Positions 20,456-21,493 of a stretch of DNA of 64,000 nt are shown here, in pieces (positions within the stretch are counted from its first letter, which is position 1; each line of letters starts with the position of its first letter). Below the pieces are notes generated by a model. It saw only the letters and a program-made list of their open reading frames with translations. It was not told the origin of the DNA and searched no databases. The stretch lies in contig CAWGBR010000014.1 in the NCBI GenBank assembly GCA_963820875.1, forward strand, positions 164,255 to 228,254. Direction: 5' to 3'. Made by a program: the position numbers and the translations under genes. Source of the stretch: an uncultured Thermoleophilia bacterium. Lineage in GTDB: Bacteria; Actinomycetota; Thermoleophilia; Gaiellales; Gaiellaceae.

Positions 20456-21317
20456 GTGCGCGTGTGCTCGCTCCTTCCCTCGGCGACGGAGATCGTCGGC
20501 GCTCTCGGCCTCACGGACAGCCTGGTCGGCGTCTCGCACGAGTGCGACTGGCCACCCGAGGCCCGCCGGCTCCCGTACGATCACGGCGTCGCGGGTGGAC
20601 ACGACGACGCTCGCGAGCGCCGAGATCGACACGGCGGTTCGGGACGCGCTCGCGGAGGGGCTGCCGCTCTACGCGGTCGACGCCGAGCTGATCGAGCAGC
20701 TCGCTCCCGACCTGATCGTCACACAGGACACCTGCGCCGTCTGCGCGGTCTCGACCGCCGACGTCCGCGAGGTCTGCCTCGTGCAGGCCGATGTCCTGTC
20801 GCTCGACGCACGCTCGATCGCCGGCATCGAGGAGTCGGTCGAGGTCCTCGCGGGCGCGCTCGGCGTCCCGGAGCAGGCCGAGCCTGTCGTGGCGGAGATG
20901 CGCCGCGGGATCCGGGAGACGAACGATCGGGTCACCGGCCTGATGCCGAAGCGCGTGTTCATGGCCGAGTGGCTCGACCCGCCGTTCGCCGCCGGACACT
21001 GGGTGCCGGAGATGGTCGAGCTGGCGGGAGGGATCGAGGTGCTCGGCCGCGCTGGAGAGCCCTCCTATCCCACGACCTGGGCAGAGGTGGCCGAGCGCGA
21101 TCCTGACCTCGTCATCGTCGCTCCGTGCGGCTTCGACGCCGAGCGCGCGGCCGCCGAGGCACGGACGCACGTCCTCCCTGCCCGCGCGTTCGCCGTGGAC
21201 GCGAACGCCTACTACTCTCGCCCCGCGCCGCGCATTGCGGATGGGATCGCCCAGCTCGCGTTCCTGCTGCACCCGGAAGCGGTACCCGACCCGGGGCTCC
21301 CGCAGATCGAGCTCTAG
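20456..21317 (+). pseudogene. cytoplasmic BtuF/TroA-like cobalamin-binding protein, one frame interruption
   Basis: From GTG 20456, [38 protein letters not shown] (ORF 20423.. frame) continues as [20 protein letters not shown]...[13 protein letters not shown] (ORF 20595..21317). The switch is near 20572-20580. No signal peptide. Confidence 0.75.
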
Positions 21318-21493
21318 ATGGTTGATCGGAAATTGTGGTGCCGTCGGGGACGGCAGAGACCGAGCCTGAGCACGTGATCGTGGCTCGTGCGTATCCGTAG
21401 ATACGTGCGAGCCACGAGCGTGGGCTCAGGCGACGGTATCGGCCGCCAGTCGGCGGTGCCACGGTTTCCGGTCAATTACCGATCAATCATCTA
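21312..21493. repeat. MITE-like intergenic element, copy 1 (terminal inverted repeats, internal hairpins)
   Basis: Ends are TAGATGGTTGATCGGAAATTG and (rc) TAGATGATTGATCGGTAATTG. The interior has hairpins GCCGTC-GGG-GACGGC and CGTGGCTCGTGCGTATC-CGTA-GATACGTGCGAGCCACG. Positions 21312-21366 are 55/55 identical to the reverse complement of 27347-27401. Confidence 0.85.

Follow-up and report, generated by a model that had tools for sequence, protein, structure and literature searches.

The non-coding DNA that separates two convergent genes in the window (the whole 64-kb stretch analysed here) is, judged by sequence comparison, a miniature transposon (MITE) of a kind common in soil Gaiellales bacteria. 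The explanation as a whole, in which a 175-nt non-coding MITE is mobilised by an IS982-family element, targets CTAG and duplicates TA upon insertion, would in our estimate be correct with a probability of about 0.88.

Copy 1, the first of two in the window, occupies positions 21317-21491 on the + strand, starts with GATGGTTGATCGGAAATTG, finishes with CAATTACCGATCAATCATC and falls into a subfamily of 174-175 nt. The initial annotation of this DNA had placed a 182-bp element at 21312-21493. The element proved to be real, while its bounds were refined inward to GATGG...CATC at 21317-21491, and the TA on each side was assigned to a target-site duplication. The left TA (21315-21316) is assigned from the single CTAG of an empty site described below and agrees with the flanks of the family, and the right TA (21492-21493) is assigned from the same empty site together with the gene calls. 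Read in order, the + strand runs from ...ATC GAG CTC TA into GATGGTTGATCGGAAATTG, through a G+C-rich palindrome of ~140 nt to CAATTACCGATCAATCATC, and out into TA GGT GAG. The terminal inverted repeats (TIRs) are imperfect, as first described, and re-examination returned the same value of 19/21 identical positions. The left TIR (21317-21335, + strand) matches the end of a 1003-bp IS982-family IS at 17/19 positions, and ahead of the right TIR (21473-21491, - strand) the motif TTGAYCGGAAA recurs in a second, degenerate version. The two degenerate versions of the sub-repeat TTGATCGGAAA that had been noticed in the right arm were both located and read TTGATCGGTAA and TTGACCGGAAA.

The + strand gene to the left (20595-21317) encodes a periplasmic-binding protein of the Peripla_BP_2 family and the - strand gene to the right (21491-22264) encodes a short-chain dehydrogenase/reductase (SDR), both assigned by Pfam; in each, the C-terminus and the stop codon are unaltered by the insertion. 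Both stops had been said to lie inside the element. The end bases G and C of the element do contribute to them, whereas the TA comes from the target duplication. Specifically, the TAG of the + strand gene is composed of the duplicated TA (21315-16) and G21317, the first base of copy 1, and the stop of the SDR gene (CTA on the + strand) is composed of C21491, the last base of copy 1, and the duplicated TA (21492-93).

Copy 2 had likewise been noticed, at 27174-27401. It is present, lies inverted relative to copy 1 on the - strand, and its extent is now refined to 27174-27396. This copy is 223 nt long, sits between two co-directional - strand genes and is ~82% identical to copy 1, with an additional 48-nt insertion. 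By Pfam, the upstream gene is prenyltransferase/squalene-cyclase-like (27396-28241, - strand) and the downstream gene carries a MoCF_biosynth domain (26344-27129, - strand). C27396 and the TA at 27397-98 together supply the stop of the prenyltransferase-like gene. At copy 2 the window reads CTCTA, then the element, then GAGCCCGGACGGA; the stop-forming TA is intact, and the far-side TA has decayed, positions 27172-73 being TC on the + strand (GA in the orientation of copy 2). The 48-nt segment is nested at 27228-27275, has GCAAGC...GCTTGC ends, is related to a motif at 22325-22375 and is missing from every other family member. The gene adjoining copy 2 has P0001 as its closest relative (96%).

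Empty sites and dispersal of the family

The form of an empty site was forecast from the CTCTAG that is common to the ends of both copies: insertion into CTAG with duplication of TA predicts GAGCTCTAGGTGAGC. An exact empty site of copy 1 was found on the metagenome contig Ga0247829_10147416 (L198; ...GAGCTCTAGGT... / ...GAGCTCTAGGTAAGC... / ...CAGATCGAGCTCTAGGTAAGCGAGAGCGAGACTCC...). The flanks of this site are identical to those in the window at 288/300 and 583/600 positions (96-97%), and the binding protein encoded on the contig is 95% identical to that of the window. Here the convergent genes overlap by 4 bases, with CTAG providing one TAG stop per strand; relative to the contig, the window carries precisely 175 nt and one additional TA at this site. 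Two further loci (L290 and L291) are without copy 2 and read ...CCGCTCTAG joined directly to CCGCCGGAACGGA... (CTCTAG followed by CCGCCGGAACGGA); 42 nt separate the two genes in these loci, and their proteins are 88-89% identical to those of the window. A search for empty sites, proposed in the initial annotation, has thus delivered exact ones for both copies. Among the genomes found via the binding-protein gene, synteny yielded relatives of at most 67% identity, one of them with a convergent SDR gene, and no usable empty site. A 29-nt stretch that covers TIR and interior sequence had 0 exact matches in the genome collection, which indicates that the window's own species is absent from that collection.

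Copy number had been a further proposed check, and the species-representative genome collection was scanned with the pattern GATGRTTGATCGGWAATTG. More than 117 exact TIR matches were obtained, nearly all of them in Gaiellaceae, Gaiella, Gaiellales and other Thermoleophilia MAGs; the few matches in other phyla consist of a lone end only and were taken as chance. Inverted TIR pairs were recovered for 89 elements at unrelated loci, with modal lengths of 163-166 and 174-175 nt (59/89 measure 160-169 nt and 13/89 measure 170-179 nt). The TIRs of the family are 19-24 nt long, and GATGGTTGATCGG is near-invariant across 72 aligned copies. Across the 160-175-nt elements the interior forms a hairpin and holds no conserved ORF. 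Mini-elements of 32-75 nt, in which two ends stand back to back, keep the CTA...TAG flanks.

The family combines the MITE features that were examined, namely small non-coding size, TIRs, a target duplication, dispersed polymorphic copies and an IS with matching ends. The original reading of a non-autonomous mobile element with TIRs is borne out by the empty sites, by more than 100 copies with a TA duplication and by the cognate IS. It had also been suspected that the family was undescribed; no published description of MITEs in Gaiella was found in the searchable literature, and this pair of MITE and IS982-family element in Gaiellales appears to be undescribed.

CTAG targeting and the neighbouring stop codons

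The left flank is CTA in 62/88 elements and the right flank is TAG in 55/88, and the complete CTA-G...C-TAG arrangement is present in 42/91. In 15 elements the two TAs are intact, a base other than C/G stands outside them and the inner G and C stay the same; in no element do the two sides share a non-CTAG tetranucleotide. From this combination the duplication is concluded to be 2 bp and not 4 bp. A 4-bp CTAG duplication of the IS5-like kind was considered and rejected, since the outer bases vary without any accompanying change of the inner G and C. The target-site duplication, the determination of which had been recommended, is hence the dinucleotide TA, which is single in the empty sites.

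At least one flank at which TA plus G ends a long ORF whose third codon positions have a coding-type G+C content was seen in 51/91 elements (~56%), and in 7/91 the TA plus G of both flanks are ORF stop codons. The genome has a G+C content of 71%. Free CTAG sites are rare in these genomes, at 0.33 per kb compared to the ~2.8 per kb that we calculate from base composition alone, and 105/280 of the free sites (37%) are ORF stop codons.

The sequences show that the target is cut at TA, with the palindrome C-TA-G strongly favoured, and that TA becomes duplicated. As the element starts with G and finishes with C, the full CTAG is rebuilt at each side. Insertions into intragenic CTAG sites would presumably be purged by selection, such that the survivors sit precisely at gene ends. 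For copy 1, convergent genes that once overlapped by CTAG now lie 175 nt apart, with the same TAG stops and the same proteins. The association with stop codons would then arise because CTAG is the chosen target and roughly one free CTAG site in three is a TAG stop, and the combination of CTAG target, TA duplication and end bases G and C makes an insertion into overlapping convergent stops translationally silent. The MITE neither makes nor destroys stop codons and regenerates a pre-existing TAG on both sides. It had been suggested that the element inserts at or creates stops; insertion at CTAG stops stands, and creation does not, since the empty site on L198 already has both TAGs.

A probable IS982-family partner

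The IS982-type transposase gene described below is absent from the window and from every MITE-bearing locus retrieved. No transposase was found among the ORFs adjoining single-TIR loci or when ORFs of the loci were clustered all against all, and a first negative-filter TIR scan returned mini-elements only. For the IS search, the element end was scanned with IUPAC 'not-G' codes that screen out the CGGGG conserved inside the MITE. At L320:2027-3029 lies a 1003-bp IS with GATG...CATC ends and a 2-bp TA duplication, flanked by CTA before GATGGTTGATCGGCAATTC... and by TAG after ...CCGATCATCCATC (last bases CATC). The proposed hunt for a transposase gene between matching inverted repeats thereby arrived at an IS982-family IS: its single ORF (L320:2138-3016), of 292 aa, scores 160.5 bits with the NCBIfam IS982 model NF033520 (cut-off 130) and matches Pfam DDE_Tnp_1 (E = 4e-14). 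Long contigs supply another three full copies (L358, L359 and L361), which share its ends and CTA...TAG flanks and bring the number of copies to four.

The end of the IS is identical to a MITE end at 21/22 positions, the ends common to both extending over 19-22 nt. Beyond ~22-24 nt the similarity ceases, and this confinement argues that the MITE interior is no internal-deletion remnant of the 1003-bp IS. From the identity of the ends and the common target we infer that this IS, through its DDE transposase, would mobilise the MITE in trans. The 292-aa transposase has 1991 homologues at E <= 1e-30; among the 120 of these that are listed, identity is 85-93% and most lie on contigs of ~1 kb, as expected of a multicopy IS that breaks assemblies.

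The nearest annotated relatives (~45% identity) are genes of Streptomyces and Kitasatospora annotated as 'IS982 family transposase'. An IS on a Streptomyces plasmid, whose annotation places it in the IS982 family and whose protein is 45% identical, has CTA followed by GATGAATGAG... with a GATG start, and ends in ...CATC followed by TAG. The CTAG target rule thus seems characteristic of an actinobacterial IS982 clade. The partner IS resembles the IS982 family (NF033520) in its length of ~1 kb, its one ORF, its TIRs and its DDE transposase, which scores above the family cut-off. In the ISfinder family table, IS982 members reportedly have AC ends and 3-9-bp duplications, unlike the GATG...CATC ends and the 2-bp TA duplication within CTAG of the partner IS. 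If this norm is right, the TA duplication and GATG ends would make the actinobacterial IS982 clade an atypical subgroup; the typical IS982 duplication length was not found in the searchable literature.

Tenzen and Ohtsubo reportedly described the CTAG preference of IS630 in 1991. Like IS630 (Shigella sonnei) and ISY100, which belong to the Tc1/mariner superfamily and duplicate TA on insertion (PMC2170065), the Gaiellales MITE enters TA, preferentially in 5'-CTAG-3', and duplicates it. Unlike theirs, the partner transposase is of the DDE_Tnp_1/IS982 type and unrelated to DDE_3. Derivation of the MITE from IS630 or Tc1-mariner elements would explain why its TA duplication and CTAG preference match IS630 exactly and why the TTGATCGGAAA sub-repeats are similar to the paired binding sites of some Tc1-type ends, and IS630 parentage was at first adopted from the TA/CTAG signature. 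It was dropped once the IS982-type partner appeared, since the only transposase genes recovered between such ends specify an IS982-family DDE_Tnp_1 enzyme and not DDE_3/IS630; moreover, a tblastn search with an approximate consensus query, a weak probe, detected no IS630-like coding sequence in 2.56 Mb of related loci. We consider such a derivation very unlikely, and the target common to IS630 and to the Gaiellales MITE and IS is a matter of convergence or coincidence, not membership.

The whole-element hairpin and competing interpretations

All 175 nt of copy 1 are predicted to fold into one hairpin of ~80 bp, with a free energy that is lower for the + strand (-118 kcal/mol, z = -12) than for the - strand (-95 kcal/mol). 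The apex is a central GC-rich hairpin (21364-21431, + strand; GCCTGAGC...GCTCAGGC) that has G·U pairs on the + strand only. The internal hairpin that had been pointed out is therefore part of a fold covering the full 175 nt, and the accompanying remark that its G-U pairs function on the + strand only holds family-wide. Across 72 aligned full-length members, standard pairs make up 94.6% of pair cells compared to 33-45% with the partners slid, both-sided (compensatory) changes occur in 38/57 pairs, and the covariation score is 0.485 compared to 0.06-0.10 in slid controls. Read in the same sense as copy 1, all 72 copies give the better fold (72/72; mean -118 vs -90 kcal/mol). With pairing set by palindromic symmetry alone, the mismatches in these members comprise 625 of the G·U type and 171 of the A·C type. 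Among minority variants inside subfamilies the ratio is 29 G·U-type to 5 A·C-type (p = 4e-5), in a comparison of copies from different species whose variants may mirror distinct active master copies and not post-insertion decay. As strand-symmetric mutation predicts a G·U to A·C ratio of 1:1, the excess of G·U suggests that the constraint acts on one specific strand in its single-stranded form.

The ~80-bp hairpin, preserved across subfamilies by compensatory substitutions, may reflect selection on a single-stranded form. One candidate is a transcript, in which a 3'-end stem-loop would insulate or stabilise the mRNA; the other is fold-back DNA, which would help the transposase to unite both ends. 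The proposal that the hairpin is a selected single-stranded structure, either a mobile RNA module at gene 3' ends (acting in transcript ending, insulation or stability) or a fold-back DNA preferred by the IS982 enzyme, is a tentative one that we hold to be rather doubtful.

A stronger version would make RNA the primary identity of the element, as the initial annotation had allowed: a host-selected structured RNA or bidirectional terminator, spread by selection for a 3'-end stem-loop and not by transposition. The great stability of the hairpin, its extensive covariation, the tolerance of wobble pairs on one strand only and the location of copies at gene 3' ends, with divergent-gene contexts making up 0/18 of those classified, all fit this interpretation. 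However, the clean empty sites, the TIRs, the TA duplication and the cognate IS show spread by transposition, and the placement at gene ends is already accounted for by the CTAG target. The stem of copy 1 leads into TIR sequence without a T-run, and neither terminator-like sites, on both strands, nor a promoter-like site were found at 21000-21800. Rfam 15 at gathering thresholds returned only a cobalamin riboswitch and a tRNA in the window, both away from copy 1, where sub-threshold microRNA-precursor models were the only matches and no credible RNA family was found. Orientation relative to the gene whose stop adjoins the element is random (15 sense, 21 antisense; no bias), and between co-directional genes it is 3 vs 9, which is not significant, strict gene calling having left few informative cases. 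With no U-tract, Rfam match or orientation bias, RNA as the primary identity was set aside as improbable; the strand-specific conservation of the hairpin would be compatible with a secondary RNA-level role.

Strand specificity might also point to DNA. HUH/Y1 enzymes recognise strand-specific DNA hairpins, and a derivative of a single-strand (HUH/Y1) transposon, or a REP-like element, would be in keeping with a hairpin that tolerates G·T-type mismatches and not A·C-type ones. Against this stand ends that are symmetric inverted repeats, a symmetric target preference (C before TA and G after), a 2-bp duplication, and a cognate element that encodes a DDE enzyme, so that such an origin appears highly improbable. 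IS200/IS605 and REP elements have neither TIRs nor a duplication and insert in a strand-specific way on the 3' side of a short target. A local segmental duplication of the two window copies, or a chance palindrome without a wider family, is refuted. While the 64-kb window holds just two copies, their flanks are unrelated to each other, which argues that no segmental duplication took place. In addition, more than 100 copies lie at unrelated loci in many genomes, and the 17-nt core of the TIR occurs four times in the window (two per copy) compared to 0.01 expected from shuffles.

The IS982-mobilised MITE can be set beside known systems. Correia elements (Neisseria) and ERIC (enterobacteria) are bacterial TA-duplicating MITEs that fold into whole-length hairpins, and plant Stowaway is a eukaryotic analogue. 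Like all three, the Gaiellales MITE is small (100-250 bp), non-coding, bounded by TIRs, TA-duplicating and present in many copies; like Correia and ERIC, it is mostly intergenic at gene ends, and the whole element can form a long transcript hairpin. Unlike Correia and ERIC, with which it shows no apparent relationship in sequence, it has a Gaiellales/Thermoleophilia host and a full CTAG palindrome as target, and a cognate IS982-family IS has been identified for it. We know of no established parent transposase for Correia or ERIC. By this analogy the MITE works like Correia, ERIC and Stowaway and is no member of them. The initial annotation had called the element reminiscent of MIRU or Correia; the comparison with Correia is apt for its way of working, not for membership, and that with MIRU, which are tandem minisatellites, is not.

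Taken together, these results give a mechanical explanation, in the form of CTAG target, TA duplication and G and C end bases, for the pattern in which an element supplies both stop codons. They describe an abundant pair of MITE and IS in Gaiellales and Thermoleophilia, which are widespread and little-studied soil Actinomycetota. The family is relevant to annotation, to MAG assembly, where contigs break at repeats, and to strain typing by filled and empty sites. A refinement of IS982 biology is also possible, as the actinobacterial clade appears to follow the target rule of IS630. Finally, the constraint of the hairpin on one strand poses the question of whether selection acts on the RNA or on the DNA form of bacterial MITE hairpins. 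If the DNA form were true, fold-back would be needed or preferred by IS982-type transposases, a requirement new to the mechanism of a DDE cut-and-paste family; if the RNA form were true, an RNA module would be installed by transposition, in a phylum with poorly understood terminators.

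CTAG density and other elements with MITE ends

The tetranucleotide CTAG is strongly under-represented in the window and in 0.85 Mb of related loci, occurring at a density of 0.33 per kb, whereas the base composition would lead one to expect ~2.8 per kb. The window contains 28 CTAG sites, three of which are part of the two copies of the MITE (the 175-nt hairpin element).

Related loci also carry mini-elements of 32-75 nt, composed solely of the two MITE terminal repeats placed back to back, with the CTA...TAG flanks retained (L100:7251-7298, L145:1803-1856, L170:192-223, L288:5508-5553, L289:5947-5992 and L285:6716-6762, among others). 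Internal deletion of the MITE could have given rise to these mini-elements; alternatively, they could be its abortive products. A 163-nt element at L281:1735-1897 combines the MITE terminal repeats with a palindromic interior wholly unlike that of the MITE, and thus the same ends are common to unrelated hairpin cores.

Other repeats and features of the window

Upstream of the SDR gene lies a second motif, the short G+C-rich CTCCGCGGCCGcCTatGgCGTCCGCTGCGCG, with ends GCAAGC...GCTTGC (22290-22400, core 22325-22375). It recurs within the window as a 48-nt insert nested in MITE copy 2 (27228-27275), and in related loci at L002:11535-11650, L133 (~6130-6157) and L176 (~7303-7331). A Thermoleophilia MAG matches window positions 22290-22400 at ~90% identity over ~100 nt, while its proteins are only 43-67% identical. 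The motif is possibly a further small mobile repeat; alternatively, it could be a regulatory element that has been conserved.

Another small palindromic repeat, with core GGGCCGGATGAGATCCGGCCC and no relation to the MITE, is present in three copies: one at 38512-38543 and a tandem pair, with a spacing of 38 nt, at 54331-54362 and 54369-54400. The window also encodes a tRNA (20339-20411, minus strand) and a cobalamin riboswitch (32669-32837, minus strand; 80 bits). The family of the binding-protein gene adjoining MITE copy 1 is frequently linked to cobalamin or siderophore uptake.

IS982-family relatives

One full copy of the 1003-bp IS982-family insertion sequence with MITE-like ends resides in a small insertion-sequence cluster (L359:2392-3873), where it is directly adjoined by an IS481-type (rve) transposase gene, with a further DDE_Tnp_1 fragment alongside. 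An annotated IS982-family element is found on the Streptomyces yangpuensis plasmid NZ_CP102515.1 (L362:326-1293); its GATG...CATC ends are set within CCCTAG...CTAGGG. The sequence of this Streptomyces element suggests that an entire actinobacterial IS982 clade targets CTAG with duplication of TA.
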